A DNA stretch of 64,000 bases, taken from positions 414,146 through 478,145 of the forward strand of contig CAXXGM010000007.1 in assembly GCA_963677325.2 (NCBI GenBank). Direction: 5' to 3'. Every line of letters begins with the position of its first letter. Within the stretch, counting starts at the first letter, position 1. Below, one piece after another: positions 29,445-48,654 of this stretch. The position numbers and the translations under genes were made by a program. Below the pieces are notes generated by a model. That model searched no databases, had not been told where the DNA came from, and was given only the letters and a program-made list of their open reading frames with translations. The DNA is from Prolixibacteraceae bacterium. Its GTDB lineage: Bacteria > Bacteroidota > Bacteroidia > Bacteroidales > Prolixibacteraceae.

Positions 29445-32400
29445 TTAGCCGGCGCTTAATGGCAAGGTGATTGTAAATGTGCTTCCGACTCCAAATTCGG
29501 ATTTGACACTTATCGTACCATGAAGTAAGTCCATTAATTTCTTGCTGATTGATAATCCTAATCCGGTCCCCTCATGTTTTCTGGTAAGATCATTTTCAAC
29601 CTGAATAAATGGGTTGAAGAGTTTGCCCAGATTCTCCTCTTTAATACCGATTCCTGTATCGGAAACTTCTATCTTTAATGAATCGTTGTCTTTATAACAT
29701 TTAATATTTACAGACCCCTTGTCGGTGAATTTGACCGCATTATTTAATAAATTCAGGATTACCTGACGAGTCCGTTGTCTGTCATTCACGATTTCACCGA
29801 TCTCCGGAATTATTTCAAAATTGAGGGAAAGTCCTTTATTCGTTGTGGCCAACTTCTCCAGTTTTATGACCTCTTCTATTAATTCTTCGATATTGAAAGA
29901 TTCGTAGATGGGTGTCAATTGTCCAGCTTCAATTTTAGAAAGGTCTAAAATATCATTGATCAAGGTTAGAAGATGCCGGCCACTCAGTTGGACCATTCCA
30001 AGCTGTTTCTTTTGTTCTTCATTTAGTTGCCCGGCTTTTTCCTGTAAAAGAATTCCGCTGAATCCTATGATTGAGTTAAGGGGTGTGCGAAGTTCATGGG
30101 ACATGGTTGCCAGAAAGGCCGATTTGAGCCGGTCCGCCGATTCGGCACGTTCCTTCGCAGATTCCAATTCAGCTGTCCTTCTCTTAACTGTCTCTTCCAG
30201 GTATAGACCATAATTTTTCAGCGCCTCCTCTGCCTGTTTACGTTCGGTGATCAAATCAAAAACCGTGACAAAATATTCCTTTACCGGACTGTAGACAGAA
30301 ATATCAAGCCATATACTCAGAGATTTAAGATAAATCTCAAACCGCTCCGGTTTCCCCGATAAGGCCACCCTGCTGCAGGCTTCAAATAAATCAGGATCAT
30401 CTTCCATAATGTGAGGAATCACCTCAGAAACTTTCCTTCCGGTAACATTTTTTAGTCCCGTCAAAGTTTCAAATGATTGGTTAACGTCCAGGTACATGTA
30501 ATCCGTAGGGCGCCCGTCCTCATACAACATTTTATAGTAGGCAAAACCCTCCACCATATTTTCAAAAAGAGAACGGAACTTCCTTTCACTTTCTTTTAAT
30601 TCTTCTTCAGCCTCTTTGCGTTCGCGTTCGTTTTCAATTGCTTCAATAGCAAATGAAATATTGGACGTGACATCTTTAAACAGTTGAACTTCTTCCGGAT
30701 TAAAATAGTACGTTCGATCAGCATACAATGAAAATGTACCGACAACCTTATTATAAACCTTTATCGGCAGAGTCACAGATGACTTGAGACCATGCTTCTG
30801 CGCCTCTTTCCACCACTTGACCATTCTCGGATCACTGGATATATCATTGCAGATGACCTCCTTCCCGGTAATAATGGCTAATTTAGCAGGCCCCATCTCA
30901 TTAGTATTATCTAAACTCAGAAATGTAATTATTTTTGCAAAGAATTCATCTTCCAAACCATTCCACGCAACAGGTCTCACCATCTTTTCTTTTTCATCAA
31001 TCATGCCAATCCAGGACATCCGGAATTTACCGAACCGAACTGAAATATTGCAAATCTCTTTAAACAGAGCATCCTTTTCATGAATATTGATGATCGCATG
31101 ATTAATATGGCTGAGAACCGCTAAAATTCGACTGGCTTTTATGATTTCATTTTCTGCCTGCCTGTGACTTGTGATATCACGGATTGATTCTATTGCACCA
31201 ATACGGTTACCCTTATCATCAAACAAAGGGGCCCACTTGATCCATATATAGGCGCCTTTGCCTTTGTAAAGGGCAGAAGCAAATATTTCTGCCTCAACTG
31301 TATTTCCTTTCTTTTTTACATTTTCAAATCTGGACAATAATAATTCTTCATTGTTGGTTTCTATAATTTCCATAAGAGTCATCCGATGATCACCATAGAA
31401 GGGTGCAGAATAAATCTGCGCCCCCTGCCCTATCATCTCATCTTTACTAATCCCTGTCATCTCCTCAATGGCTTTGTTCCAGGCGACTACTTTATTCCCA
31501 TTATCGAGTACAAAGGTTGCGTCCGGCAGAAAATCAATGATGCTGCTCAGTTTTTGTCTGGATTCTTTCAATGCCTCTTCAGCTATTTTTTGCTCGGTGA
31601 TATCCATCACAAGAGATGTGACTCCAATTGTATTTCCTGTCTGATCAACAAGAGGGGTATTAAACCACTCACAATAAATTATTCTCCCATCCTTGGTGAG
31701 ATTCTCGTTGGAACTTCGTAGCCCGCCGGTCTGTTTTACAATTGAATCCCAAATATCTTCTATCGGGGGAACAACAGATTTTGGAACAATCAGGCTCCAG
31801 TATTTTCCTATGGCTTCCTCACGCGTATATCCAAACATCTTGATAGCAGCCGGGTTCCATTCCCTGATATAACCGTCCATGTCAAATTCAACGACCGCGA
31901 GTGGTGTTTGCTGAACATGCAGGGCCAACTTCTCCAAGGTAAGTTCCAGTGTTTTTTCTGCCCGTCTTCGTTCGGTGATATCCTGTAGGATACAATGTGT
32001 CTGCTTGAATTCCCCGTTAATATCATGGCCTATCTTGCCATCAAAAGCGATGAATAATGGATTGCCATTTTTATGAATCATCTCAAATTCACTATGAATC
32101 TCGCCTTTAGCTTTGAATAAGGGGAAACGTTCCCGGAAGCTTTCCCGGTAAGACGGAGAAATAAAGTCGCCAAACCACTTTCCGATTACTTCTCCGCGGG
32201 TATAACCCAATGTATCGAGCCATCGCTGGTTTACCTCGATTAAATTGCCGTCATTGTCAAGCGACTGATACCCAAGGGGAGCCTGGTTAAATAGCATATG
32301 GAATCGCTCCTCGCTCTCTTTCAGGGCAATTTCAGCTTTCTTGCGCTCAGTGGTCACTTCCGTGTACATGACAATGCCCCCGATCTCCCCATCAACATGG

Positions 32401-33167
32401 CGCCAGGGGCGACATTCCCAACGGTTATAAGTAATAGAACCATCGGGACGTTCAAAAAAATCATCCTCGCTGCGTTCAATGGCTCCAGCCAGGCAGCGTT
32501 GGTGAACATCTTTCCATCTTTGGGGCAACTCAGGAAATATATCATAGAGGTTTTTTCCTATAACATCCTCTTCCCTGACATTATAATCCTGGAGATAACG
32601 ATTGCTCACTGCAATATACCGGATATCCCTATCGAGGACTGCAATGGCATTAGGATCGTGTTTTACAATATAGTGCATGATCTCCTCGCTGTCATGGAGC
32701 TCTTTTTCCGCTTTTTTCCGCTCAGAAATATCCTCGATTAAAGCAACAAAATAAAGAAATTGACCATTTCCATCATATATGGCGATAAATGTGACAGCTT
32801 CGCAGGAAATGGTCTGATCTTTACGAATAAAACGCTTTTCTGTCTTAAAAACCGGGATTACTCCGGACTTAAGCTTGTTTAATGATTCAATATCCTTTTC
32901 AATATATCGCATATAGGAAATATCCAAGAAGGAAAGGTTCATCAGTTCCTGCTTTGAATAACCCAGGATCCGGCAAAATGCTTCATTCAGTTCCAGAAAA
33001 TGCAAATCAGCTCCGATGATGGCCAATCCTATGCCACTCTCATCAAACATGTTCCATATAGCTGAATTTCTTATGTCTGAAAGATATTCCGAAGTGCTGG
33101 TCTGGATTCTCATGGTGTACAAATAAATGGCATTAAAAATTCGTAAAGTATGAAAAGCACTTGCCAT
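29445..33167 (-). CDS. Cytoplasmic multi-PAS/GAF sensor histidine kinase (HisKA + HATPase_c, no receiver domain)
   Basis: H-box 'MSHELRTPLNSIIGFS', N-box 'ILNLLNNAVKFT' and G-boxes 'DTGIGI' and 'GTGLGLSI'. Upstream there are about seven PAS-like repeats and one GAF-like segment. The start could be 33167 or 33113. Confidence 0.85.
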   Translation of the reverse strand: MASAFHTLRIFNAIYLYTMRIQTSTSEYLSDIRNSAIWNMFDESGIGLAIIGADLHFLELNEAFCRILGYSKQELMNLSFLDISYMRYIEKDIESLNKLKSGVIPVFKTEKRFIRKDQTISCEAVTFIAIYDGNGQFLYFVALIEDISERKKAEKELHDSEEIMHYIVKHDPNAIAVLDRDIRYIAVSNRYLQDYNVREEDVIGKNLYDIFPELPQRWKDVHQRCLAGAIERSEDDFFERPDGSITYNRWECRPWRHVDGEIGGIVMYTEVTTERKKAEIALKESEERFHMLFNQAPLGYQSLDNDGNLIEVNQRWLDTLGYTRGEVIGKWFGDFISPSYRESFRERFPLFKAKGEIHSEFEMIHKNGNPLFIAFDGKIGHDINGEFKQTHCILQDITERRRAEKTLELTLEKLALHVQQTPLAVVEFDMDGYIREWNPAAIKMFGYTREEAIGKYWSLIVPKSVVPPIEDIWDSIVKQTGGLRSSNENLTKDGRIIYCEWFNTPLVDQTGNTIGVTSLVMDITEQKIAEEALKESRQKLSSIIDFLPDATFVLDNGNKVVAWNKAIEEMTGISKDEMIGQGAQIYSAPFYGDHRMTLMEIIETNNEELLLSRFENVKKKGNTVEAEIFASALYKGKGAYIWIKWAPLFDDKGNRIGAIESIRDITSHRQAENEIIKASRILAVLSHINHAIINIHEKDALFKEICNISVRFGKFRMSWIGMIDEKEKMVRPVAWNGLEDEFFAKIITFLSLDNTNEMGPAKLAIITGKEVICNDISSDPRMVKWWKEAQKHGLKSSVTLPIKVYNKVVGTFSLYADRTYYFNPEEVQLFKDVTSNISFAIEAIENERERKEAEEELKESERKFRSLFENMVEGFAYYKMLYEDGRPTDYMYLDVNQSFETLTGLKNVTGRKVSEVIPHIMEDDPDLFEACSRVALSGKPERFEIYLKSLSIWLDISVYSPVKEYFVTVFDLITERKQAEEALKNYGLYLEETVKRRTAELESAKERAESADRLKSAFLATMSHELRTPLNSIIGFSGILLQEKAGQLNEEQKKQLGMVQLSGRHLLTLINDILDLSKIEAGQLTPIYESFNIEELIEEVIKLEKLATTNKGLSLNFEIIPEIGEIVNDRQRTRQVILNLLNNAVKFTDKGSVNIKCYKDNDSLKIEVSDTGIGIKEENLGKLFNPFIQVENDLTRKHEGTGLGLSISKKLMDLLHGTISVKSEFGVGSTFTITLPLSAG

Positions 33168-33209: not shown

Positions 33210-33237
33210 TTAACAGACGATTTTGGATAAAAATGAT

Positions 33238-33266
33238 AAATGCAGGAATTAAAGATTCCTGCATTT
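33238..33266 (-). terminator. Terminator hairpin ending the eight-gene array (perfect 12-bp stem aaatgcaggaat/attcctgcattt, 5-nt loop)
   Basis: Read directly. On the minus strand it is followed by 'atcattttta'. Confidence 0.6.
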
Positions 33267-33468
33267 AGATGTAAACATATAATTTAGAAAAGATTAGAAT
33301 GCGGTTCTCATTTCGTGTGCCGGCAACGGCTTTTTATCGTAGAAAGATTTCTCTGATCTAAGGAAATAACAGCTATCGAAATGTCTTTTTACAAATTCTT
33401 CAACCATGTCAATTTATAATTTTGACATTTTAGTCCTGCATTTGACTTTACATACCGGGTAGAGCTTT

Positions 33469-34305
33469 TTAAAACACAATCGATTTATCAATGTTCACGA
33501 TTCGAATGATGTCGCAGGTTTCCGGATTAAAGATGATGAGTCCGCCACTGAAATATTTAATCATTCCTCCGCCAAAATCTCCGGTGACATACACCAGGCT
33601 GTTGTCCTTGAGAGCATAGATTCCCTCTCTTGTAGCAATGTAAAGGATGCCATTTTTTGAATCAACGGCCATTGATTGGATCTCACTCTCTTTCTGAAAC
33701 CCGGCCACTAAATTCAGCACTTTGCTTTGGGGAGAAAATGAAAACACTCCGCTTCCAATCGCAAGATAAAGCGAATCGCTCATTTCTACCACCGTAGTGA
33801 TAGGTTTGGGGGAAACCAAGAGTTGTTTGTATTTTCCTCCTTTTGCGAAAGCATAGAGTTTGTATTGTTTATCTTCCCTGGATTGATCGAATAAATACAT
33901 CACCTCTTTCCCTGCCGCTATTTTCATGTCTGCCCTGGGTAATTGGACCAGTGTGTCAAGGTTTCCTTCAGCGTTCATATAACCCAGGACATTGTTTCTT
34001 ATCGCCATTAGAAGACCGTCCTTTGTATAAGCATATGAATTTACCGGATTCCCATCCACCTTGTTTCCCAATTGTGATATTCCTCCCCACCCCAATAAAT
34101 AAATCTTGTCGCCGGTGGAGAGAGTGATGTATTTGCCGGGGGACATATCTATGGCGCTGATAAAATGGCTTTTTTTAAGTGTTGAATCCAACATGTTGCT
34201 GCTTAGCATTACTTCATAACGCAGGGAGTCTTTCTGCTGGGCAAAAGCTGATTGGACAAGAAACAGAAACAAAATTACCAGAGAGTAGATTATTGGTTTT
34301 TTCAT
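33469..34305 (-). CDS. Exported hypothetical protein, beta-propeller-like repeat pattern (array gene 8)
   Basis: Signal peptide 'LFLVQSAFAQQ'. About six ~40-aa segments each carry a hydrophobic strand plus Gly (YLLGWGG, LMAIRNNVLGY, LYAFAKGG, LYLAIGSGVFSF, ILYIATREGIYAL, LIIFNPE). Confidence 0.6.
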   Translation of the reverse strand: MKKPIIYSLVILFLFLVQSAFAQQKDSLRYEVMLSSNMLDSTLKKSHFISAIDMSPGKYITLSTGDKIYLLGWGGISQLGNKVDGNPVNSYAYTKDGLLMAIRNNVLGYMNAEGNLDTLVQLPRADMKIAAGKEVMYLFDQSREDKQYKLYAFAKGGKYKQLLVSPKPITTVVEMSDSLYLAIGSGVFSFSPQSKVLNLVAGFQKESEIQSMAVDSKNGILYIATREGIYALKDNSLVYVTGDFGGGMIKYFSGGLIIFNPETCDIIRIVNIDKSIVF

Positions 34306-34323
34306 GGTTTGTGAATTAAAAAC

Positions 34324-35445
34324 TTAATATTTTCTCAGACCTACTTTCCAGTCATCCGAAACATGTGAATAGATATTTTTATTTTTAAGCAGCTCCATCC
34401 CTTTGGATTCCATGAGAGCAAAATTAGCCGCATCTTTAGCATCATCTATTTCGCCGGAAATAAAATCTTTTCCCTGTTCGGCGTATGATTTTGCAGTTTG
34501 AACCCCGGTTTTATAAAGCGCATTTGAGGAGATTTTGGCCCGCAGATCGACATTGCCGACTTCATCCATTCTTGCAATGTTCCCGCTGATAGCTGCATCG
34601 GAAGCATCTTTAAGGTAGGACATTGTTTCCTTTTTGATGTTCAGCATGTACCGGCCGGCCAAAGCTGCCACGCGTCCTCCCTGGAAAGTTTCTATCTTGT
34701 TAATGGCTGCCTCTAAATATTGATCCGGTCCACTCTCTGCAGGAGCATTTGATTCTTCCATCTTATAGCTGTTGGGAGGAACCTGTGCCCATGCGTTATT
34801 ATCCCAGCCAATTTTGAGACCCTGCCTGAGCAGGTTTTGCCGTTCAATATCTTCCCTGGACATTGGAGCAGGTTTCATATCCAAAGGCTTGAACTCAATG
34901 TCACCGGCAATGAGTGTTTTTAACTTAATCATGTTTGTGCTCAACACCTTGTAGGATTCCATCATCTTTTCATATCTCGCCTGCGCTATAGAATCATTGT
35001 AGCGTCTCTCGGCTTCTGCTCTTGCAGCAAGAATGGCAGCCTGCCGACGCTCTGCTTCAATGGCCTGTGGGCTTTTTTGTGTGCTGCCGCTGCTGAAAAT
35101 CATCCCGATAAAAGCGCTTGCAAGACCGCTTGCAATTTGCATCTTCACGGCATTTTGGAAAAGGGCTGCTTGAGAAATAGTATTTGCAACATTTGTTGGT
35201 CTTTGAGCCGGAGTAACAGTATGGTGGTCTGTATTCCCACTCGATACCTTTTGTCCGGCAATGTTTTCCAATTGTTCAAGTGCACTTCCACCTTTAACGC
35301 CTGTATCAAAGCCATTACCACTATTAGCCTTATACGTTTCTATTTTCTCCCCAGTTGTTATACCAATCTGGGAGAGAGCAATATTTGGAAGTAATAAGCT
35401 TAGGAATAATCCCATAAAAATCTGAAGTTTTAAGTGCTTTTTCAT
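34324..35445 (-). CDS. Exported hypothetical protein with an Ala/Arg/Glu-rich coiled-coil centre (array gene 7)
   Basis: Signal peptide 'LLLPNIALSQ', a hydrophobic stretch 'MQIASGLASAFIGMIFSSG', then 'AIEAERRQAAILAARAEAERRYNDSIAQARYEKMM'. I recognise no family. Confidence 0.6.
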   Translation of the reverse strand: MKKHLKLQIFMGLFLSLLLPNIALSQIGITTGEKIETYKANSGNGFDTGVKGGSALEQLENIAGQKVSSGNTDHHTVTPAQRPTNVANTISQAALFQNAVKMQIASGLASAFIGMIFSSGSTQKSPQAIEAERRQAAILAARAEAERRYNDSIAQARYEKMMESYKVLSTNMIKLKTLIAGDIEFKPLDMKPAPMSREDIERQNLLRQGLKIGWDNNAWAQVPPNSYKMEESNAPAESGPDQYLEAAINKIETFQGGRVAALAGRYMLNIKKETMSYLKDASDAAISGNIARMDEVGNVDLRAKISSNALYKTGVQTAKSYAEQGKDFISGEIDDAKDAANFALMESKGMELLKNKNIYSHVSDDWKVGLRKY

Positions 35446-35486
35446 AGCTTTTGTTTTAATTGGTTATATCCTTCACTGTTTGCTGT

Positions 35487-36332
35487 TTACTTATTTATTC
35501 CTGCTTCCCATTCGTAAATCTTATCCTGTGCATTTCTTGCATCCGGAGAACCCGGTAAGATAAGCATGTACTTTTTCATGCTTAGAATAGCCTGGTCAAA
35601 TTGCCTTAGCTGGGCATAGATCAATGCCATGTTGAAGTAAGCATCCGGGAAACCTGTTTCGTTTATCTGAAGGGCCTGCTTAAAATAGTTGAGGGCCTGA
35701 CCATAGTCTTTTGTTTGCGTGGCGGCATTTGCCTGAACGATGAATTTCCTTTGTTCTTCAGAAACCGGTTGTTTTGCAGCCTGTCCTTTATACTTTTCGA
35801 CAACCGAAGCAAACCGTGTCAACTCAGATCCAACAGACTCGGTGATGGTTTGTCTTTTAATAAAATACAAATCGTCCGCAAGCCGGCACATTAAATCGTA
35901 ATCCAGACTGTAAATATCGGTCAAATTTTCTCCAAATTGAATGCCAATCTGATACATTACAACATGTTTCCCGCTTTCTTTTTGGAGCCGGTTTCCCCAG
36001 ACAAAAAATACGTCATTAGATGATTTAGCAATATCAAGATTAAAGTTTATCAGCGAGGTCGTAATAAGGAATCCATCACCTTCCATGACCGCTTTATCAA
36101 TAAGTGTCCGGTTACTGGTCAATTTTACCCTGACATAAGGTTTGCTGGAATAAAAATGTACCGTCTCTTTTTTGTTTAAGATACTCAGTATTTCCTGCTG
36201 AGCCTCTTTAATCGTGCGAATATTTTCCGGAAGTTTGGACTTGTACTGATCGAGAGTTTGTGCATGAGTTGCGAAAGTCAGCCCAAACATGATAGCTGAA
36301 ACAAAGAACATTTCAAATCGGATCTTTTTCAT
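35487..36332 (-). CDS. Array paralogue 6: signal peptide + variable N-domain + conserved TPR-like C-module ending DKIYEWE
   Basis: '..PVSEEQRKFIVQANAATQTKDY..AYFNMALIYAQLRQFDQAI..ARNAQDKIYEWEAGINK'. I chose the start at 'MKKIRFEMFF' (36332) to avoid overlapping the upstream gene; the track starts at 36368. Confidence 0.7.
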   Translation of the reverse strand: MKKIRFEMFFVSAIMFGLTFATHAQTLDQYKSKLPENIRTIKEAQQEILSILNKKETVHFYSSKPYVRVKLTSNRTLIDKAVMEGDGFLITTSLINFNLDIAKSSNDVFFVWGNRLQKESGKHVVMYQIGIQFGENLTDIYSLDYDLMCRLADDLYFIKRQTITESVGSELTRFASVVEKYKGQAAKQPVSEEQRKFIVQANAATQTKDYGQALNYFKQALQINETGFPDAYFNMALIYAQLRQFDQAILSMKKYMLILPGSPDARNAQDKIYEWEAGINK

Positions 36333-36354
36333 ATTTTCAGTTTTAGTAAGTCGA

Positions 36355-37218
36355 TTATTTCGCCACATTCAATTCCCATTCGTAAATTTTATCCTGAGCG
36401 CTTCGTGCATCCGAACCATCCGGTTCCAGCAGAAGGTATTTCTTCATATAGAAGATAGCAGCATCAAAATTGCTTACCTGTGCCGAAAGCAAGGCTAAAT
36501 TGGAATAGGCCGCCGGATATGCAGTTGGGTCTATTTCAACTGCTTTTTTATACAGTTCAATGGCCTTGTCAAACATTTTCTTTTCATTCAGAGAATTGGC
36601 CTGTACAATGAACCTCCTTTGCTCTTCCGAAACAGCTGGTTTTATTTTTAATTCGCGATACTTTGCGGCTATTGATTTAAAAAGGCTGAGCAATGAATCA
36701 TTTTGTTGAATACTATTGAACGGCTGTTCACTATAAAGATGATAGTATTGCTGAAAAAAACATAAATAATTGGCTAATTGTTTGAAATTCCCAGTGTTCG
36801 CTTCAGTAGTGAATCTTAATCCTCCAAGTCTTATCGTGTAACCGCTCCAACTGGGTGGTACGTCGTCAACCCGAATAATTTCAATAGGTGTTTTCAGTAA
36901 TTTCGAAAAAAGCCAGGTACTTGCTTTATTACGTTTATAGGTAATATTAAATCCATCATCAGAAACAGAAACATCTTTGGGGAAACTGCTGGGCCTGTTA
37001 CGATCATCCCAACTTTCGGTTTCCCTTAATAATTTTGCCAGGCTATTTTTTGCCTCATTAAATTCAGCCTTGGGAATAACTGGATAATAATAATGCTTTT
37101 CATTCTGTGTCTTTGTCTGTGCATTTGAAGCGGCACTCAAAAGCACAACAGCTAATAATGTGATTAATCTAAGTTTGATGTTCATTTGACCCGGTTTAGT
37201 GCTCAAAAGAGTTTTCAT
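36355..37218 (-). CDS. Array paralogue 5 (same architecture)
   Basis: '..PAVSEEQRRFIVQANSLNEKKMF..AYSNLALLSAQVSNFDAAIFYMKKYLLLEP..SAQDKIYEWELNVAK'. An alternative start 'MNIKLRL' is at 37185. Confidence 0.7.
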   Translation of the reverse strand: MKTLLSTKPGQMNIKLRLITLLAVVLLSAASNAQTKTQNEKHYYYPVIPKAEFNEAKNSLAKLLRETESWDDRNRPSSFPKDVSVSDDGFNITYKRNKASTWLFSKLLKTPIEIIRVDDVPPSWSGYTIRLGGLRFTTEANTGNFKQLANYLCFFQQYYHLYSEQPFNSIQQNDSLLSLFKSIAAKYRELKIKPAVSEEQRRFIVQANSLNEKKMFDKAIELYKKAVEIDPTAYPAAYSNLALLSAQVSNFDAAIFYMKKYLLLEPDGSDARSAQDKIYEWELNVAK

Positions 37219-37253
37219 TTTTTAAGGTTCTTTAGTTTCAGTCTAAGAATTGA

Positions 37254-38081
37254 TTATTTAGCTATCATGGCTTCCCATTCATAAATTTTATCCTGAGCAT
37301 TACGTGCATCTGAAGCATCAGGTACAAGAAGCACGTATTTTTTCATATTCAAAATAGCCATGTCAAATAAACGTTCTCCAGCATACAACAAAGACATATT
37401 ATAATAAGCTTCAGGGTACGCGATTGGATTCACTTCAACAACCTTTTTATAGACTCCTGCAGCTTTTATATATTCCTTCGCCTGAGAGAAAAGATTAGCC
37501 TGAACAATGTATTTTCTCTGTTCTTCTGATAATGAAGGTTTTGGATTTGCATTGCGATATTGCTCAACCAATGGCATGAAGCCTTTTAATTGGTATTCGG
37601 CATTCTTCACATTAAACTTATGTTGTAAACTATACAGAATATCACATAAATCTTTGGCCTTTTCAAGGCTGATATGGTCAAATTTAAAACGGAAGTTATT
37701 CTTCAATTGAAGGTAGTAAAATACCCTCATTTCTTGACTTTTGTTTAAATATTGTTCCTTATTAACTGACAAACCAGAATCAAAATCATCAAAGTTGATA
37801 ACTATTTTATCAGTTTTATTTGATAGGATACAGATATTATCATTATTTATCTCAACATTTTTATAAGATACAGTTTGGTCGTTTGATAATATCCAACATG
37901 ACTTGAGTAACCGATAAAGTGTTTCCTTATCTTTATCAAATGTTAAATCAAAACTTATAACTTTAGGCTGATAATTGGTCCAAGGAATTGAAGTATTATG
38001 CGAATCTTCCTTTATTTGAGCATAACATGCTATTGCATAAGAAAACAAGATAGTCGACAATAAATACTGAATATATTTCAT
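37254..38081 (-). CDS. Array paralogue 4 (same architecture)
   Basis: '..PSLSEEQRKYIVQANLFSQAKEY..AYYNMSLLYAGERLFDMAI..ARNAQDKIYEWEAMIAK'. Confidence 0.7.
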   Translation of the reverse strand: MKYIQYLLSTILFSYAIACYAQIKEDSHNTSIPWTNYQPKVISFDLTFDKDKETLYRLLKSCWILSNDQTVSYKNVEINNDNICILSNKTDKIVINFDDFDSGLSVNKEQYLNKSQEMRVFYYLQLKNNFRFKFDHISLEKAKDLCDILYSLQHKFNVKNAEYQLKGFMPLVEQYRNANPKPSLSEEQRKYIVQANLFSQAKEYIKAAGVYKKVVEVNPIAYPEAYYNMSLLYAGERLFDMAILNMKKYVLLVPDASDARNAQDKIYEWEAMIAK

Positions 38082-38304
38082 AATATTATTAATTAAAATC
38101 TATTTTCCTTAATCTTCTGTTTACCTCTTCACCTAAAGTGCATATTTATTCACTAATCACCAGTCTATATCTGCTCTATGTTTGGTCCGTATTTGGTTCG
38201 CTTCCGGTTCGTAATTGAAAAAGAAAGAAATTTAAAGAAGTTTGCATAATTATTGATTATATTTTGCATAATTATACGCTTTGTCTCCATTTAGTAATTA
38301 ATTG

Positions 38305-39102
38305 TTATTTACCCAACTCTCCTTCCCATTCATAAATTTTATCCCGGGCACTGCGGGAGTCTGAAGCCTCAGGCTCGAGAAGAAGGTACTTCTTCATATA
38401 GAAGATAGCGGCATCAAAATTGTTTACCTGTGCCGAAAGCAAGGCTAAATTGGAATAAGCACCCGGATACGCAGTCGGATCTATTTCAACTGCTTTTTTA
38501 TACAATTCGATGGCTTTCCCGTACATTTTTTGTTGATTATTTGAATTAGCCTGTACGATAAATTTTCTTTGCTCTTCCGAAACTGGCGGTTTCACTTTCA
38601 TTTCCCGATACTTTGCGGCTATCGGTTCAAAGAGATTAAGCTGAGTCTCATAACGCTTTTTTTGGGTCTGATTTTGTATAAAGATTAGATTTTGTCTCAA
38701 CTCCTCCAATTTATTAAAATTACTTTTGACCCACCCATTGGTGATAAATTCATATTTATCGAGCACCAGTACGATTTTGGTTTTTCTATAATTTGCAGAT
38801 GGGATGGAATCATCGAGGAAGTCTGTAAAATAAATGGCCGAATTTTGCTTGTCAATTTTGAATTCAATCCTGTCATCCATTACCGCCAGATCTTTCGGGG
38901 TGCCGCTTAACTGATTTCGTTTATCGTAAATCTCAACTTTATCATTTAATATTTTGGCTATGTCCGCTTTTACTTCCCCTATTTTTTTATTGGCCTGAGT
39001 TAGCGGAGTGCTGCCGGCATTCAAACTTTTTTTGGATTGTGCAAGTGCATTAAATGTCAAAAGCACCAAAGTCAATAAGGTCAGTGATCGAAGGATTTTC
39101 AT
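38305..39102 (-). CDS. Array paralogue 3 (same architecture; N-domain related to paralogue 1, C-module closest to paralogue 5)
   Basis: '..PPVSEEQRKFIVQANSNNQQKMY..AYSNLALLSAQVNNFDAAIFYMKKYLLLEP..SARDKIYEWEGELGK'. Confidence 0.7.
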   Translation of the reverse strand: MKILRSLTLLTLVLLTFNALAQSKKSLNAGSTPLTQANKKIGEVKADIAKILNDKVEIYDKRNQLSGTPKDLAVMDDRIEFKIDKQNSAIYFTDFLDDSIPSANYRKTKIVLVLDKYEFITNGWVKSNFNKLEELRQNLIFIQNQTQKKRYETQLNLFEPIAAKYREMKVKPPVSEEQRKFIVQANSNNQQKMYGKAIELYKKAVEIDPTAYPGAYSNLALLSAQVNNFDAAIFYMKKYLLLEPEASDSRSARDKIYEWEGELGK

Positions 39103-39131
39103 AGGTTTAATTTATATTTATTTTTTACTTT

Positions 39132-39929
39132 TCATTTAGCCATCATGGCCTCCCACTCATAGATCTTATCCTGGGCGCTGCGCGCATCCGGAGCATCGGG
39201 TACCAGTTTCAGGTACTTTTTCATGCGATTAATAGCCTCATCATATCGACCAACCATAACAAAAAGCAAGGCCTGATTATTGTACACCATGGGATTAGTG
39301 GGATCAAGCAGAATTGCTTTTTCGTAAAATTCGATGGCTTGATTATAATTCTTTGATTGAGTCATCGCGTTGGCCTGTACTATAAACCTTCGTTCGTCTT
39401 CCGATATTGGAGGTTTTTCTTTTAGCGCCCGGTATTTAGCTGCGATCAAGTCAAAATCTTCAGCATCTTTCAAATTAACAAAATGTTGCATGTTTTGAAA
39501 ATAGACCAGATCATCAGCGAATCTTTTAGCAAATTCTAAGTCCCGGATTCTCCAGTAAAGTGTCAAATCAGGCAATACCATTTCGTATACTTTCCCGAGG
39601 TACGAATATTCCAAAATTTCAATCTTTTGTTTGGTAGTATATAGAAACAGGTATTTATCCAATTTTTTTGTGACATTAAACGAGACCCCATTTTTCGTGA
39701 TAACCACCTCTTTATCTTCGGGTATATATTGAGTCTTTAGCGATTTGCCTAAATTTACACTGTAAACCTTACCTAACATCTCGGAGAATTCCTTTTTGAC
39801 TGAGTCCAGTTTTTCAAGGGTGTTGTATCTGAGCGTTCCGCTATACACCGGAGTGATTTTTTGAGCTGTTGCCGGGACAGTTATGGAAACCAATAATGCG
39901 CAGATGATTGAATAGATATTTTTCTTCAT
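39132..39929 (-). CDS. Array paralogue 2 (same architecture)
   Basis: '..PPISEDERRFIVQANAMTQSKNY..VYNNQALLFVMVGRYDEAI..ARSAQDKIYEWEAMMAK'. Confidence 0.7.
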   Translation of the reverse strand: MKKNIYSIICALLVSITVPATAQKITPVYSGTLRYNTLEKLDSVKKEFSEMLGKVYSVNLGKSLKTQYIPEDKEVVITKNGVSFNVTKKLDKYLFLYTTKQKIEILEYSYLGKVYEMVLPDLTLYWRIRDLEFAKRFADDLVYFQNMQHFVNLKDAEDFDLIAAKYRALKEKPPISEDERRFIVQANAMTQSKNYNQAIEFYEKAILLDPTNPMVYNNQALLFVMVGRYDEAINRMKKYLKLVPDAPDARSAQDKIYEWEAMMAK

Positions 39930-40002
39930 AATCTTTTAGTCTAAAAACGTTTCAATTCTCCTGGATAAACTGTTCCCGGTTTCACTGTTTACCGTTCTCC
40001 GT

Positions 40003-40821
40003 TTACTTACTTATCATCGCCTCCCATTCATAAATTTTATCCTGGGCGCTTCTGGCATCTGAAGCTTCCGGTTCGAGTAGCAGGTACCATTTCATATAGG
40101 TTATTGCTGCTTTAAAATCATTTACCTGCGCACTAAGCAAAGCTAAATTTGAATAACCAGCCGGATAGGCTACCGCATCCGTGTCAATGACCTTTCTATA
40201 AAGCTCTATCGCTTTACTGTAATTTTTCTGTTGACTGAATAAATTGGCCTGAACGATAAATTTTCTCAGTTCTTCCGATAGGGGAGGTTTGACGCTCAAG
40301 GCACGATACTCTTTTATCTTTTGTAAAAACGCGGCCATGTTAGCCTCTTCCTTCTTAATTTTAAAATCTTTCTGAATAATGATCAGATTTTGCCTTAATT
40401 CAACAAGCCTCTTGTAATTGTTATTAAAACCTCCGGATATCAAATCGAAATTCAGCAGAGATAAAATTGATTTATTCTTCTTAAAATAGACAGCTGGAAT
40501 GGGGTCACCGGCCAGGTCGGTAAAATAAATAGCAGTATTCTGATCTTTGATTTTGAATTCAATCCGATCGTCCAAAACCTTTATGTCCTGAGGAGAATCT
40601 CTCAATTGAGTTTTTTTGTCGAAAACCTCTATTTTTTCCTTTAGAATATCAGCAATGGTGGCCTTCACCTGAACAATATCCTGTTCCGGTTGAGATTTTG
40701 GATCAATTATGACTGAACTGTTTTTGTCATTGATTACATTTCCTAAAGGTCTGGACTGCCCAAATGCAGCAAATGTGCAAAATGCGAGGGTCAATGCTGT
40801 TATTAATCGGATGGTTTTCAT
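40003..40821 (-). CDS. Array paralogue 1 (same architecture; first gene of the array)
   Basis: '..PPLSEELRKFIVQANLFSQQKNY..GYSNLALLSAQVNDFKAAI..ARSAQDKIYEWEAMISK'. Confidence 0.7.
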   Translation of the reverse strand: MKTIRLITALTLAFCTFAAFGQSRPLGNVINDKNSSVIIDPKSQPEQDIVQVKATIADILKEKIEVFDKKTQLRDSPQDIKVLDDRIEFKIKDQNTAIYFTDLAGDPIPAVYFKKNKSILSLLNFDLISGGFNNNYKRLVELRQNLIIIQKDFKIKKEEANMAAFLQKIKEYRALSVKPPLSEELRKFIVQANLFSQQKNYSKAIELYRKVIDTDAVAYPAGYSNLALLSAQVNDFKAAITYMKWYLLLEPEASDARSAQDKIYEWEAMISK

Positions 40822-41166
40822 GGCAAAATGTTGTATTAGCTTTTACAATTCGGTTATTGATAATTTATTAGTGACAGCTACCCTTATCCAATAAACATTG
40901 GGCATACTGTTCCGAAAATAAATTCAACTAAAATATAAATTATTTCCTTAGAGTGGACAATTTATTTTAGTTTCTATGAATTAATCTATTCATTCTCAGT
41001 CCTTCGTTCTGTAAATTGAATCCATATGATATATAGAAAGTTAATTGATGTAATTCAACCTGTTTTTGAAACATTTTAATTCTGTTTGTTCCGATTGCTG
41101 AATTGGAATAAACCTTCGGCCGAAGCCTGACCTCAACGGGATTGGCTCGTACTATCTGTATCCCAT

Positions 41167-41267
41167 CTGTGCACTTTCTGTGCTATTTCAGCACAGAAAC
41201 TGCACAGAAACTGCACAGAAACTGCACAGAAACTGCACAGAAACTGCACAGTAAGTGCACAGTGAAA
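41167..41267. repeat. 11-nt tandem repeat (gcacagaaact x5 perfect + 2 degenerate) preceded by two inverted units, giving a 17-bp hairpin
   Basis: Read directly. 'ctgtgcactttctgtgc' (41167-41183) is the near reverse complement of the first direct units. The direct units start at 41191. Confidence 0.9.
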
Positions 41268-41314: not shown

Positions 41315-42169
41315 TTAGTTAGCTGCTTTTTTGAAAGTCCTGTGGATTGATTTCAGCAATCCCTGAGGGGTCCATTCCGGCACGATCATCCTGCGGACAG
41401 TTTGCAAAGGGAAAGCCGAATCGCGTGGTGTTGCGAGCGAAAAAGAAAGTTTAAAATATTTATTTAACTCTTCGGCCCCTTTGTGGTTATATATCCCATC
41501 CGGGTAAGCCCAGTATTCTATTGGACTGTTCACGATTTTCTCCAGCTTTTTTTTCGGGTCTGTTACCTCTTTTCGCCAGTCGGATTCATCTTTATATTTG
41601 GTCACCATCACATGATCCCAACTATGCAGCCCAACGCAATGGCCGGCTTTTGACAGCTGTGCAATCTGTTCGGTGGTCATGTAATTCTTCTTGTTGTAGG
41701 TGATGGTCATGATGAAGAAAACTCCTCTGAATCCATACTTCTCCATCACCGGAGCTGCAATCATAAAATGCTCAATTCTTGAATCATCAAATGTGATCAT
41801 CACCGGCTTTTGAGGCAAAGCCTTATTATAAACGAGATAGTCATACAGCTGAGCTGGCAGAATAGAGTGATAACCGCTATCAGCCAGTATTTTCATGTCA
41901 GCTTCAAATGTTGCGGGAGTCACCTCATATTCGCTTTTCCGGTCCGTGCCTATACGATGGTAGCAAAGGACCGGTATTTCCGGCTTGGCAAGAATTTTGT
42001 CCGGAGTATTAGGTATCGGTTTTACCTCCGCGGTGTCCTTTACTGCAACCGGGTTGGTTGTCGCGTCCAATTTTGAGGTTCGTTGGTGTTGTTTGGGTGG
42101 ATTACAACTTACAACAGTTGATCCCAGGAATATCGGAATTAAAAGAAAAAATATTGTTTTCGTTTTCAT
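41315..42169 (-). CDS. Polysaccharide deacetylase (NodB homology, CE4) lipoprotein
   Basis: Lipobox 'LGSTVVSC', and NodB motifs 'VMITFDDSRIEH' and 'HSWDH'. Confidence 0.75.
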   Translation of the reverse strand: MKTKTIFFLLIPIFLGSTVVSCNPPKQHQRTSKLDATTNPVAVKDTAEVKPIPNTPDKILAKPEIPVLCYHRIGTDRKSEYEVTPATFEADMKILADSGYHSILPAQLYDYLVYNKALPQKPVMITFDDSRIEHFMIAAPVMEKYGFRGVFFIMTITYNKKNYMTTEQIAQLSKAGHCVGLHSWDHVMVTKYKDESDWRKEVTDPKKKLEKIVNSPIEYWAYPDGIYNHKGAEELNKYFKLSFSLATPRDSAFPLQTVRRMIVPEWTPQGLLKSIHRTFKKAAN

Positions 42170-43273: not shown

Positions 43274-44344
43274 TTATCTCTTTAACAGATTGTTTTTTTT
43301 TGTTGTAAATGAGTCTATTTCGTTATTGTTTCCCAACAGCGTGATGTCAATGTCAAAATTCCTGATTTCACCTGGTTCCAGGTATTGGATGTTTTTTTTA
43401 TTTTCAGGATCTAACCGGCCTCCGACAAAACAATTGCACGGCTCCATTCCCATGACATACTCTCCTTCGCCCATTTGTTTCCACTGAGTGAAATTGAATA
43501 GCTGATTTTTATTGAAAGAGAGAGCTACTCCAATTTCAAGCTTCTTATTGATCAAAGCTGCACGGGTTTCACCATCATTATCCGAAGCAAGATCATGATA
43601 GAAAACCTGTTCAGCAAAACCGGGAGTAGGTTGCTGGCACTGATTGTATGAAGCTTCACCCTTAGCCGCTTCCTGATCTTTGGGTTTTAGTTTCAGGGTG
43701 GGGGTCACCAGCAGGGAATCCTTATCAAGTAAGGGATATCCCAAGTTAAAATGGAATAAAAGCATGAGCGGTTCCCGGTTGAATCCTAAATTTTCAACGG
43801 TGTTTTGGATGGTTATTTTATTTTCTCCGTATTTACAGATAATTTTCCTTCCGAGTCTTAAATTTTCTCCAAAAACCCGGGCTTCACGTATTTTCCCGCT
43901 GATGGTTAACACCGGGACATCGTCAATCCATTCTGTGGAGGCACATATTTCCTCTGCGGGAGTATTGGATATCCGGCCATGCAAGCCAAACGATTCACCA
44001 TTTTCTTCACAAGGGCCTCCAACATTACGCAAACCACAGGTAGTGAAAAACCCGGAATGAAAACTACGCAAAAAGCCGATGCCATTCTGATCATAGTATT
44101 GCGGAGCTACAATGCCGGTTTTGCTGATATAGCTGCAATTATACCCTTTGAATGATAATCCGGCGATGTCAAGGCACCTGTCAGCGAGAATTGTAAATAC
44201 AAGCCCCGAACCGTTGTTGACGTCGAAAGCTCTTACTCCGTCAGCTTTTCCACCCACAAGCGTATATTCCTTAATTCCAAATAGCTGGCTGAAGTCTCCT
44301 ACATATTTGAGCATCTGCCTTTTGTTTAAATTAGTTGTAGTCAT
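43274..44344 (-). CDS. Aldose-1-epimerase-like (DUF4432-type mutarotase fold) protein
   Basis: About 356-366 aa, containing 'FGLHGRISNTPAEE'. It lies downstream of GH38. The family is recalled from memory. The start could be 44344 or 44374. Confidence 0.5.
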   Translation of the reverse strand: MTTTNLNKRQMLKYVGDFSQLFGIKEYTLVGGKADGVRAFDVNNGSGLVFTILADRCLDIAGLSFKGYNCSYISKTGIVAPQYYDQNGIGFLRSFHSGFFTTCGLRNVGGPCEENGESFGLHGRISNTPAEEICASTEWIDDVPVLTISGKIREARVFGENLRLGRKIICKYGENKITIQNTVENLGFNREPLMLLFHFNLGYPLLDKDSLLVTPTLKLKPKDQEAAKGEASYNQCQQPTPGFAEQVFYHDLASDNDGETRAALINKKLEIGVALSFNKNQLFNFTQWKQMGEGEYVMGMEPCNCFVGGRLDPENKKNIQYLEPGEIRNFDIDITLLGNNNEIDSFTTKKNNLLKR

Positions 44345-44360
44345 AATTAAATTTCTTGTT

Positions 44361-47048: not shown

Positions 47049-47405
47049 TGAAATATTTTTTGGACTATTAATTAAAATCATGACCTTCTTTTCTATAAGC
47101 AGGGGTAAAATATGTACATGCTGATTTAAATGAACTATTGGCATAATTCAAATAGTGAATGAGTTTACCGGGATGAGAATTTAAGACACAAAAATTTTCC
47201 TTATCACAGGATGTAAAAGGATTCCGGATTAATGGCTCAAAAGCATTGATGACTTCTTCTCCCATCTGTTTTAGTTAGTTAAATACAAACAGGTTAGTTA
47301 TCTCCTGTACGCAATGACAGGAATAATACAATAGTACAAAATTAAAAGATCAGGCCTACACTTTTTGGTGAGATTTATTTCTTTTAAATAATTATGTTTT
47401 TACTT

Positions 47406-47413
47406 TACCTTTG
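47406..47413 (+). promoter_or_regulatory. -7 promoter box TACCTTTG
   Basis: Matches TAnnTTTG, 78 nt before the ATG at 47491. Confidence 0.3.
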
Positions 47414-47490
47414 TTCATGAGCGAGCATAAATTTTAATCAATTCAGATGAGTATCCGTCTTTTAATTATACATTTATAATAAATAAAACA

Positions 47491-47970
47491 ATGAATGACT
47501 TTAAAGAAAACAATCAGGAGTTACTGCGTTTGGTTCAGGAATATGAACCAAAATTACTGAACCTTTCCGAAGAAGTGATAACAAAAAGAAGAAACAGCCA
47601 AAACAGATCCATCAAGCAAATATTAGGGCACATGGTGGACTCCGCTTCGAATAATATTCACCGGATCGTCCATCTCCAATATCAGCCCAGTCCTTTGATT
47701 TATCCGGATTATGCAAATCTTGGCAATAATGACAGATGGATCGCTATTCAAAATTACCAGGAAGAGAATTGGGAAGATTTGATTCAGCTATGGAAATACT
47801 CCAATTTGCACATCATCCATGTGATCAACAATGTCAATACGGAAAAACTGGATAATCCCTGGATTACAGCCTTAAACGAGAAAGTCACTTTAAAAGAAAT
47901 GATTGTTGACTATCTGTCTCATTTTAAGTTGCACATCAAAGAAATTGAGGAATTGATCAATAAAGAATGA
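47491..47970 (+). CDS. DinB/YfiT-like four-helix-bundle protein
   Basis: 159 aa with 'ILGHMVDSASNNIHR' and a late 'YLSHFKLH', matching the His-triad pattern of the DinB superfamily. Confidence 0.6.
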   Translation: MNDFKENNQELLRLVQEYEPKLLNLSEEVITKRRNSQNRSIKQILGHMVDSASNNIHRIVHLQYQPSPLIYPDYANLGNNDRWIAIQNYQEENWEDLIQLWKYSNLHIIHVINNVNTEKLDNPWITALNEKVTLKEMIVDYLSHFKLHIKEIEELINKE

Positions 47971-47991
47971 ACCCGATAGATATTTAACCTT

Positions 47992-48543
47992 ATGAAAAAC
48001 GTTACTTGCCTATTTATAATCTGCTTAACACTTGGACTTATCTCACAATCTCTTGCGCAAAATCAACGCAACAATTGTATCAGGGGTAAGGCAGAACCTA
48101 TTGTCAAGAAGTCAATCTTTCCAAAATCTAATTTCCAACTTCAGGCAGACAGCTTAACAGCAATCGAAACGGTTGACTTTAAAAATGGCGACAAATTGAC
48201 AATAAGAAACTGGGGATGTGAATACTATTGTCTGACTTTTAAATTTGAGACATCTCGTTTTCAAAAGGATACAACTAACCTTGAATTTTGGTTTAAAGTT
48301 TCTTCAAAACTGATGGCTGAAGTTCTTGAAGGAATAGATGCACCGGTTGACCTAAAAAGAGGAATTGCTTCTTTTGATGATTATATCGGAAAAGACAAGA
48401 AGAACAATTACAGGAACTTAGAACCAGGTAAAGAAATTTACTTTGGGCTTAGAGAGCCGAAGGAATTTGTAACTTTTGATAGAATTCAAAAGTTATCAGA
48501 CAAAAAATTCTTAGTAACGTTAACCTTTGCAGTCCCACTGTAA
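47992..48543 (+). CDS. Hypothetical exported protein
   Basis: Signal peptide 'LGLISQSLAQ' and no recognisable motif. Confidence 0.5.
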   Translation: MKNVTCLFIICLTLGLISQSLAQNQRNNCIRGKAEPIVKKSIFPKSNFQLQADSLTAIETVDFKNGDKLTIRNWGCEYYCLTFKFETSRFQKDTTNLEFWFKVSSKLMAEVLEGIDAPVDLKRGIASFDDYIGKDKKNNYRNLEPGKEIYFGLREPKEFVTFDRIQKLSDKKFLVTLTFAVPL

Positions 48544-48654
48544 TGTAGTAAAGATTGTCAGTGAATGTCCTGCTGCAACTTTTTATATCCAAAATGAATT
48601 TATAGTAAAGGTTGGTTCATCACCAGCTTTTACTACTTATGCAAATCAATATTT

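Follow-up and report, generated by a model that had tools for sequence, protein, structure and literature searches.

The window analysed here, a 64,000-nucleotide (nt) stretch of contig CAXXGM010000007.1 from a Prolixibacteraceae bacterium, harbors on its minus strand an array of eight genes that runs from position 40821 down to position 33469 (all coordinates are those of the window) and forms one co-oriented, terminator-closed unit encoding Sec-exported proteins [Table 1]. The first six genes are paralogues in which a divergent N-terminal domain (N-domain) is joined to a conserved C-terminal module of the tetratricopeptide repeat (TPR) type (C-module); genes 7 and 8 encode two further exported proteins. 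The reading that best accounts for these features, to which we assign a probability of roughly 35%, is that of a periplasmic hub-and-adaptor complex in which the six paralogues would serve as adaptors and the gene 7 product as their common hub.

All six paralogues, each with an N-domain of the alpha/beta type, were full-length matches to one family profile with E values of 1e-66 to 1e-124, a similarity that is thus far beyond chance. The Pfam TPR_1 profile scored above its gathering cut-off (27.8 bits) in five of them (genes 1, 2, 3, 5 and 6, at 28.1-40.8 bits); gene 4 remained below the cut-off, yet its C-module is 53-62% identical to those of the other paralogues. The AlphaFold2 model of the gene 3 product, with a mean predicted local distance difference test score (pLDDT) of 91.3, a predicted template modelling score (pTM) of 0.80 and pLDDT values of 97-98 over residues 176-264, places in this order a signal peptide, a disordered segment (residues 22-34), a helix, about eight short strands, a 42-residue helix, two TPR repeats and a capping helix [Table 1]. 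The 42-residue helix holds both the 'LRQNLIFIQ' and the 'AAKYR' elements pointed out in an earlier note on this DNA, and the DKIYEWE motif sits on the capping helix. Foldseek comparisons of the gene 3 C-module (residues ~176-264) returned consensus TPR proteins with a root-mean-square deviation of 1.3-1.4 Å and a target-normalised TM-score of up to 0.89; the targets (1na0/1na3, 3kd7, 2vyi and 3lca) superposed at 1.3-2 Å over ~85-90 columns, with E values of only ~1e-3. Searched against the PDB and BFVD, the gene 3 model as a whole yielded essentially TPR-type or weak, uninformative matches only. The C-module is therefore a genuine two-repeat TPR followed by a capping helix, belonging to the TPR superfamily by profile and by fold, and the earlier proposal of six paralogues sharing one architecture and a TPR-like C-terminal module is borne out by the family profile, Pfam TPR_1, the model and Foldseek alike.

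The 91-residue C-modules of the six paralogues are 49-82% identical to one another (mean 60%). Only SEEQRKFIVQAN and DKIYEWE are near-invariant among them, so that the 'invariance' claimed for the module holds for these two elements and not for the module overall. When 76 unique sequences from three phyla were compared, 33 of 100 C-module positions showed conservation of 90% or more; among them are the structural positions canonical for TPRs, D248, R250 and the run of seven consecutive residues D254-K-I-Y-E-W-E260 on the capping helix, as well as R179, V183 and N186 on the first A-helix and N218 on the second. Identity of the window C-modules to those of Ignavibacteria and Desulfobacterota (57-58%) is about the same as that found among the paralogues themselves. 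The segment directly preceding the TPR, AAKYRxLKxKPxVSEEQR, is likewise conserved in every member of the family.

The N-domains, 18-44% identical among the six paralogues (mean 27%), had been described as hypervariable and diverged almost beyond alignment. This description has to be abandoned, since they are alignable, a single hidden Markov model (HMM) detects them at full length, and their subfamilies are shared between genomes. Near-invariance is limited to D77, L139 and F158; with almost no invariant residue the domain bears no catalytic signature, and the adaptors are accordingly read as non-enzymatic. For five of the six paralogues, a closer N-domain relative was found in another genome (45-57% identity) than within the array, while the best outside match of the gene 5 N-domain (39%) is about level with its best match inside (37%, to gene 3). 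The gene 3 N-domain has diverged from its orthologue at locus L001 (54%) to the same extent as gene 7 has in the same pair of genomes (55%). As judged from these comparisons of sequence, the array is a panel of old, differentiated N-domain subfamilies, of which different genomes carry different subsets of one to six. A search of 1.84 billion representative proteins with the N-domain profile yielded 144 representative clusters, all but one of a length compatible with the N-domain-TPR architecture (architectures were checked by length, and the ten longest proteins were scanned with Pfam). No informative domain fusion to the N-domain emerged among these 144 clusters, the exceptions being membrane-hairpin variants and one putative barrel fusion, and the domain was thus met nowhere but in this family.

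The genomic context of the family was surveyed in two directions. The gene 7 profile, run against a single genome of each species, yielded 24 loci, of which the open reading frames (ORFs) were called and scanned with the three family profiles; a reverse survey reached five loci from TPR-family members located on long contigs. In 22 of the 24 loci, one to six TPR-family genes lie directly beside the gene 7 relative on the same strand, and a gene 7 relative was found immediately downstream in all five loci reached from the TPR side, for a total of ~27 independent loci in Bacteroidota, Ignavibacteria and Desulfobacterota. Wherever the adaptors occur, a gene 7-family protein is encoded directly beside them. 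Gene 8 follows gene 7 only in a subset of the Bacteroidota, namely in nine close Bacteroidales loci of the 24 and in two of the five TPR-reached loci (12 loci overall). The co-occurrence of genes 7 and 8 with the DKIYEWE module, on which the grouping of the eight genes had been staked, was thereby confirmed. The hosts are Bacteroidales/Bacteroidia (including Microbacter and Odoribacter metagenome-assembled genomes [MAGs]), Ignavibacteria, Desulfuromonadaceae, Desulfobacteraceae, Desulfovibrionaceae and other 'delta-proteobacterial' MAGs; these carriers are anaerobes of peat, fen and sediment known almost only from metagenomes. No third conserved neighbour gene was found across the surveyed loci, the deacetylase gene adjoining the array in the window being no exception. 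Histidine kinase-like genes were noted within a few kb of five loci (the window and four others), an association that we treated as probably due to chance because their positions and orientations vary. Relatives of genes 3 and 7 were found neither on plasmids nor in IMG/VR, and an origin from a mobile element or phage was therefore dropped. Two copies of the module (L023 and L024) lie on different contigs of one Ignavibacteria MAG, each with four to six TPR genes and a gene 7 of the FecR-like type described below; in each, one TPR gene is split into two ORFs (137 and 177 residues) and is probably a frameshifted pseudogene.

Variation in the number of TPR copies, from one to six, would also be expected of a self-assembling periplasmic scaffold in which the paralogues bind one another, each groove being occupied, as in MamA, by a conserved stretch of the adjoining subunit, to yield a hetero-oligomeric coat or lattice nucleated or anchored by genes 7 and 8. 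MamA, which self-assembles through its TPR groove, was indeed the recurrent best named NCBIfam match for five of the six paralogues (E = 3e-6 to 1.5e-4), and the AAKYRxLKxKPxVSEEQR segment present before the TPR of every member could be the groove ligand. These matches, however, reach only 21-27 bits where the cut-off is 200, loci with a single TPR gene exist (L006, L019, L020 and L029), and self-assembly alone leaves the strict adjacency of gene 7 unexplained; such a scaffold thus appears clearly improbable to us. Membership of the family in MamA itself was rejected, the scores with NF040959 being 14-27 bits against 200: MamA is cytoplasmic, has five repeats and lacks an N-domain, whereas the proteins studied here are exported, and no mam genes or other magnetosome context accompany them.

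The gene 7 product consists, in this order, of a signal peptide, a SALEQLENxxGxK motif, an amphipathic helix (residues ~92-116), an Ala/Arg/Glu helix (126-170) ending in YEKMMESYK, a stretch predicted with low confidence to be disordered that includes FKPLD at 185-189, a helical C-terminal region and a DDWKVGLRKY tail. Its AlphaFold2 model has a pLDDT of 50 overall and below 50 in the FKxLD stretch and was unsuited to fold searches; the Ala/Arg/Glu coiled coil noted earlier is supported by the predicted helix 126-170 within this otherwise low-confidence model. Only profile positions ~50-177 are universal in the gene 7 family. This core comprises a short motif after the signal peptide (SA[LI]xQLExxxGxK or, in other lineages, CxxCG...H...C), the amphipathic helix, a long helix rich in Ala, Gln, Glu and Arg that ends in YEKMMxSYK, and the FKxLD motif. 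Beyond it, at least four different C-terminal regions occur that differ between lineages: the helical type of the window protein; a type of ~500 residues, alignable with the window type but enlarged by long insertions and ending in a segment with invariant Cys; a FecR-like type (24.1 bits in Pfam, cut-off 24); and two further types found at L015 and L030, the latter Gly-rich and hydrophobic. The helical and FecR-like types have in common a [DE]xW(W)K tail, located no more than nine residues from the C-terminus. Sixty relatives of gene 7 were found in a collection of 5.8 billion proteins; nearly all of those bearing a name are 'hypothetical', none has a Pfam domain, and one is labelled as a YhcB/DUF1043-family membrane-anchored protein. 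In the public annotation, gene 7 (P0121, 363 residues) begins at Met11; the 373-residue form with a full signal peptide is more likely, because the alignment with homologues already begins at the upstream MKK. Relatives at eight loci (L009, L003, L018, L022, L027, L016, L023 and L028) carry, directly after the signal peptide and in place of the SALEQLENIAGQK of the window protein, CxxCG-x5-7-H-x3-C, which could be a metal site or a disulfide knot.

A conserved N-terminal core followed by at least four unrelated C-terminal regions also lends itself to a different reading, in which gene 7 would be an exported polymorphic effector, membrane-active or otherwise toxic, whose conserved N-terminal region would serve its handling while its C-terminal 'warheads' could be exchanged; the TPR proteins would hold or neutralise it in the periplasm of the producer, and gene 8 would be a further protector. 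The parallel is with TPR class II chaperones, which hold type III translocators: like the adaptors here, SycD/LcrH is a small TPR protein paired with a partner made of an amphipathic or hydrophobic helix and a coiled coil, and its groove binds a short linear motif. The amphipathic/hydrophobic helix of gene 7, the Gly-rich hydrophobic C-terminal region of the L030 type and a weak LcrH/SycD match of gene 2 (TIGR02552, 24.6 bits) all speak for an effector, and paralogue arrays beside a polymorphic protein recall toxin-immunity loci. Yet the LcrH model demands 104.8 bits, far more than was scored, and LcrH chaperones are cytoplasmic and encoded in injectisome loci, whereas the proteins studied here have signal peptides and no type III secretion genes; class II chaperones were rejected on these grounds. 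Library scans revealed no toxin domain, secretion-system gene or PADLOC system. A polymorphic toxin-immunity system was discarded as well, since none of the gene 7 types matched a toxin family in Pfam, NCBIfam or the PDB and since one and the same gene 8 family follows two gene 7 C-terminal types (that of the window and that of L030), unlike a cognate immunity gene. In addition, gene 7 is preceded, not followed, by the TPR genes, and since the TPR is the invariant part of the adaptors and the core the universal part of gene 7, specificity does not track the variable 'warhead'. An effector role for gene 7 is thus, in our opinion, rather unlikely.

Gene 8 is the most conserved member of the array, with 72-86% identity to its close homologues. 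Its 111 relatives in the 5.8-billion-protein collection resemble those of gene 7 in that nearly all named ones are 'hypothetical' and none has a Pfam domain; the named relatives of both genes come from Bacteroidales/Bacteroidota MAGs. The protein appears to be beta-rich with about six propeller-like units, for which the evidence is weak: the internal repeat was detected by hhalign with an E value of 0.007 and a reported probability of only 5.3%, and two PorZ propeller matches stayed below their cut-offs (PorZ_N_b_propeller, 15.1 bits against 27, E = 0.029; T9SS_PorZ, 15.6 bits against 260, E = 0.004).

These PorZ matches bring to mind type IX secretion, cargo proteins of which similarly join a variable N-terminal part to a conserved C-terminal module of ~90 residues. 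By the same logic, the TPR at the extreme C-terminus of the paralogues could be a sorting or attachment tag recognised by genes 7 and 8, which would bring the cargo, the variable N-domain, to the outer membrane or the surface of the cell or anchor it there. A fusion protein is in line with this, P0423, which joins an N-domain to a putative beta-barrel ending in Phe. The TPR, however, is not an Ig-like type IX domain, none of the proteins matched Por_Secre_tail, the locus encodes no outer-membrane translocon, and the PorZ scores fall short as stated; membership among type IX cargo or PorZ proteins was therefore rejected. The module is also present outside Bacteroidota, in Ignavibacteria and Desulfobacterota, which are not known to possess type IX secretion. 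A sorting tag is accordingly the explanation that we consider highly improbable. P0423 itself carries a gene 2-type N-domain followed, in place of the TPR, by a beta-rich, outer-membrane-barrel-like region of ~250 residues ending in ...GISCSF; it is the only example of its kind and may reflect an error in gene calling.

Export of the array products was assessed by inspection of their N-termini. All eight begin with a basic n-region and a hydrophobic core followed by a small residue and then Gln at position +1, as in type-I signal peptides, the cleavage sites from gene 1 to gene 8 being FG/Q, TA/Q, LA/Q, YA/Q, NA/Q, HA/Q, LS/Q and FA/Q. Gln at +1 is the signature of signal-peptidase-I substrates in Bacteroidetes, known as the Q-rule (PMC5837995), and all eight products conform to it. 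A canonical lipobox ([LVI][ASTVI][GAS]C) was absent from the eight window proteins. The earlier note had allowed for one in gene 4; this part of its account is unlikely to be right, as the candidate, AIAC, has a non-canonical Ala at -3 and, one residue upstream, directly precedes the A-x-A/Q site (YA/Q) common to the six paralogues, making type-I cleavage more likely, while its statement that the other seven lack a lipobox stands. Desulfobacterota homologues of the TPR family carry L-x-G-C lipoboxes instead, which together with the fit to the Q-rule supports the Sec signal peptides proposed for all eight products; the invariant Cys residues of the long gene 7 type were also counted as support for export. 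Five relatives of 425-487 residues (P0349, P0363, P0370, P0379 and P0398) consist of a signal peptide, an extra region of ~150 residues, two hydrophobic helices with a conserved RP(F/I)PD loop, the N-domain and the DKIYEWE TPR. From their sequences they look like an inner-membrane-anchored form, in which the two-helix membrane hairpin would leave the N-domain-TPR part outside the cytoplasm.

Periplasmic TPR proteins, some of them lipoproteins as in Desulfobacterota, further suggest adaptors of the NlpI/LbcA type, acting in envelope proteolysis or in the control of cell-wall hydrolases. Each paralogue would hand over its own periplasmic substrate to a protease or hydrolase whose gene lies elsewhere, with genes 7 and 8 as regulators or substrates. 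NlpI and LbcA resemble the Desulfobacterota members in being lipoproteins, gene 2 has a weak NlpI match (24.6 bits), and a polysaccharide deacetylase gene on the same strand immediately precedes the operon. We give this possibility little chance, as the NlpI cut-off is 250 bits, no protease or hydrolase gene is conserved in the ~27 loci, the window proteins are devoid of lipoboxes and the deacetylase neighbour is not conserved; for the first three of these reasons the family was also not assigned to NlpI/LbcA.

We return to the hub-and-adaptor complex. From the anatomy of the locus, its export signals, homology, synteny and conservation pattern, we infer docking, oligomerisation, client diversity and any physiological role as follows. 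The conserved TPR groove of every adaptor would dock in the periplasm on one short conserved stretch of gene 7, common to all adaptors, for which the FKxLD/YEKMM region of the core and the C-terminal [DE]xWK tail are candidates. The long helix of gene 7 would mediate its multimerisation, allowing one hub to carry several adaptors at once; each adaptor would present a different N-domain binding surface, and hence accommodate a different client or ligand; and output or anchoring may be provided by the C-terminal part of gene 7 that differs between lineages, joined in the window by the putative propeller-like protein encoded by gene 8. A TPR surface frozen across phyla implies one shared, equally conserved ligand; gene 7 is the only protein always encoded with the adaptors, and the core is its only universal part. 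Several points count against this scheme. Two gene 7-like loci (L013 and L026) are devoid of an adjacent TPR gene; the module encodes no client, enzyme or membrane machine that would define its output; the oligomeric state of gene 7 and the disorder of its motif region are weak inferences given the poor model (pLDDT 50); and the conserved TPR surface could instead bind another member of the family or a housekeeping envelope component encoded elsewhere. With regard to the earlier idea of a constant docking module fused to a diversified one and set beside partners, the conservation pattern fits it well, although the diversified part is not hypervariable, and neither the immunity-array nor the variable-envelope option put forward with it gains specific support.

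Comparison with described systems placed nothing but the TPR. Scans of all eight proteins against Pfam, NCBIfam, PADLOC and PHROGs identified only generic TPR; PADLOC returned just two weak single-protein matches (E = 2e-4 and 0.012), the sole PHROGs match, to a family of unknown function, was restricted to the TPR region, and profile searches of the PDB with gene 7, gene 8, the N-domain and the long gene 7 type gave nothing below E = 0.1. Nothing relevant came up when the literature was searched for the motifs and for TPR paralogues arranged in tandem in Bacteroidales. The earlier statement that the proteins belong to no characterised family therefore holds for the N-domain and for genes 7 and 8, and the module cannot be assigned to any known system; it is new in the sense of being unplaceable rather than of having a proven new function. 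Other candidates were rejected in turn: CpoB/YbgF (TIGR02795, 16-17 bits against a cut-off of 90.1, and no tol/pal genes in the window neighbourhood or related loci), BamD (15.6-19.8 bits against 81), PilW (15-19 bits against 154), and a known anti-phage defence or phage protein (weak PADLOC matches only, and no plasmid or IMG/VR relatives).

Several described systems nevertheless offer parallels. Three-repeat TPR clamps of the Hop/SGT/Tom70 type hold a short partner peptide. The adaptors resemble these and the consensus CTPR3 by fold match and by their conserved Asn, Arg and Lys on the A-helices of two repeats with a capping helix; they differ from peptide-binding TPRs in being exported rather than cytosolic, in having only two full repeats and in that the capping helix with DKIYEWE is their most conserved part. 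Envelope TPR proteins that act by docking partners include NlpI (Prc/MepS), LbcA (CtpA), CpoB/YbgF (TolA), BamD and PilF/PilW, and CpoB shares with the adaptors a long helix plus a C-terminal TPR. Here, however, no tol, bam, pil or protease genes are adjacent, and the known systems lack a tandem panel of paralogues with a dedicated N-domain. By analogy only, a constant C-terminal docking module joined to variable modules and encoded beside one scaffold recalls cohesin-dockerin pairs, from which the present module differs in its unrelated folds, its periplasmic rather than extracellular location, a scaffold without repeated receptor modules and variable domains that are non-enzymatic. The resemblances to peptide-in-groove TPR docking (Hop/SGT clamps, NlpI/LbcA) in probable mechanism and to cohesin-dockerin in logic are analogies, not memberships.

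Three of the four protein modules, namely the N-domain, gene 7 and gene 8, are without a relative in curated families or among solved structures, yet their neighbourhood has been kept in three phyla; this, with the constraint on the TPR surface and the expansion to up to six adaptors, points to a specific, undescribed envelope function. Tentatively, and with somewhat more doubt than we attach to the hub-and-adaptor reading as such, the loci may represent a cross-phylum periplasmic machine in which a near-invariant TPR 'dockerin' of two repeats couples as many as six interchangeable receptors, the N-domains, in a set particular to each genome, to one coiled-coil hub with a lineage-swapped output domain, serving modular recognition of multiple ligands or clients, or else a new class of Sec-exported polymorphic effectors with dedicated TPR handlers. 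If docking as proposed is true, the module would reveal a new principle by which periplasmic complexes are organised, and a very small, conserved docking pair could be drawn from it; if the hub-and-adaptor hypothesis is false, the loci would amount to a well-delimited family of unknown function and not to a system.

Between 40821 and 33469, ORF calling found eight consecutive co-oriented minus-strand ORFs of 265-373 residues. Internal starts chosen by alignment with the other paralogues were used for genes 5 and 6 (MNIK at 37185 and MKKIRF at 36332), and with these the intergenic gaps from gene 1 to gene 8 measure 73, 29, 223, 68, 22, 41 and 18 nt, matching the earlier description of gaps of 18-73 nt apart from one of 223 nt. 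The latter gap may contain an internal promoter, although none was identified in it. The closing hairpin, reported previously as a perfect 12-bp stem at 33238-33266, is real and extends to 13 pairs (33267-33237) followed by a T-tract; it is the sole strong minus-strand terminator-like site outside coding sequence between 33100 and 41400.

Table 1 Features of the eight-gene array and their window coordinates
Feature	Position	Strand	Remarks
Gene 1, TPR-adaptor paralogue, 272 aa	40003..40821	-	Signal peptide, N-domain 22-181, TPR C-module 182-272; Pfam TPR_1 28.1 bits (cut-off 27.8); family HMM E = 1e-111
Gene 2, TPR-adaptor paralogue, 265 aa	39132..39929	-	N-domain subfamily common to L010, L012, L008/L009
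Gene 3, TPR-adaptor paralogue, 265 aa	38305..39102	-	Modelled paralogue; helix 41-53, ~8 short strands 57-122, helix 126-167, TPR helices 176-264
AT-rich non-coding gap between genes 3 and 4, 223 nt	38082..38304	-	No minus-strand terminator-like site
Gene 4, TPR-adaptor paralogue, 275 aa	37254..38081	-	Most divergent TPR; Cys at -3 of cleavage site, probably not a lipobox
Gene 5, TPR-adaptor paralogue, 276 aa from MNIK start	36355..37185	-	Longest ORF starts at 37218
Gene 6, TPR-adaptor paralogue, 281 aa from MKKIRF start	35487..36332	-	Longest ORF starts at 36368 and would overlap gene 5
Gene 7, proposed hub, 373 aa	34324..35445	-	ORF, relatives, low-confidence model
Gene 8, exported protein, apparently beta-rich, 278 aa	33469..34305	-	~6 putative repeat units of ~40 aa, propeller-like
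Intrinsic-terminator-like hairpin	33237..33267	-	13 pairs, 5-nt loop, T-rich tail TCATTTTTAT; ~200 nt past gene 8

The array is surrounded by ordinary chromosomal sequence of ~40% G+C. Downstream of the terminator, and on the same strand, lies a gene for a 1240-residue multi-PAS/GAF histidine kinase (29445-33167, minus strand); upstream are the polysaccharide deacetylase gene (41315-42169), again on the same strand, then glycoside-hydrolase genes and gyrB. Genes for a DUF4432 protein, a GH38 alpha-mannosidase and a SASA-type acetylesterase at 43274-50079 suggest a glycan-degradation context, and glycoside hydrolase genes also flank L001 (GH1/GH2), L003 (GH28), L029 (GH2) and L030 (GH3); such genes being abundant in Bacteroidota, this neighbourhood may mean nothing. 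Positions 41166-41262, just past the deacetylase stop codon and 340-440 nt ahead of gene 1, are taken up by a tandem repeat with an 11-bp unit (CTGTGCAGTTT, ~6.5 copies, 96% match), which is followed by an inverted partial copy, making the region hairpin-capable. The only Rfam matches, to microRNAs, were dismissed as spurious and caused by this repeat, which itself could act as a terminator, as a set of binding sites for a regulator or as a spacer prone to slippage.

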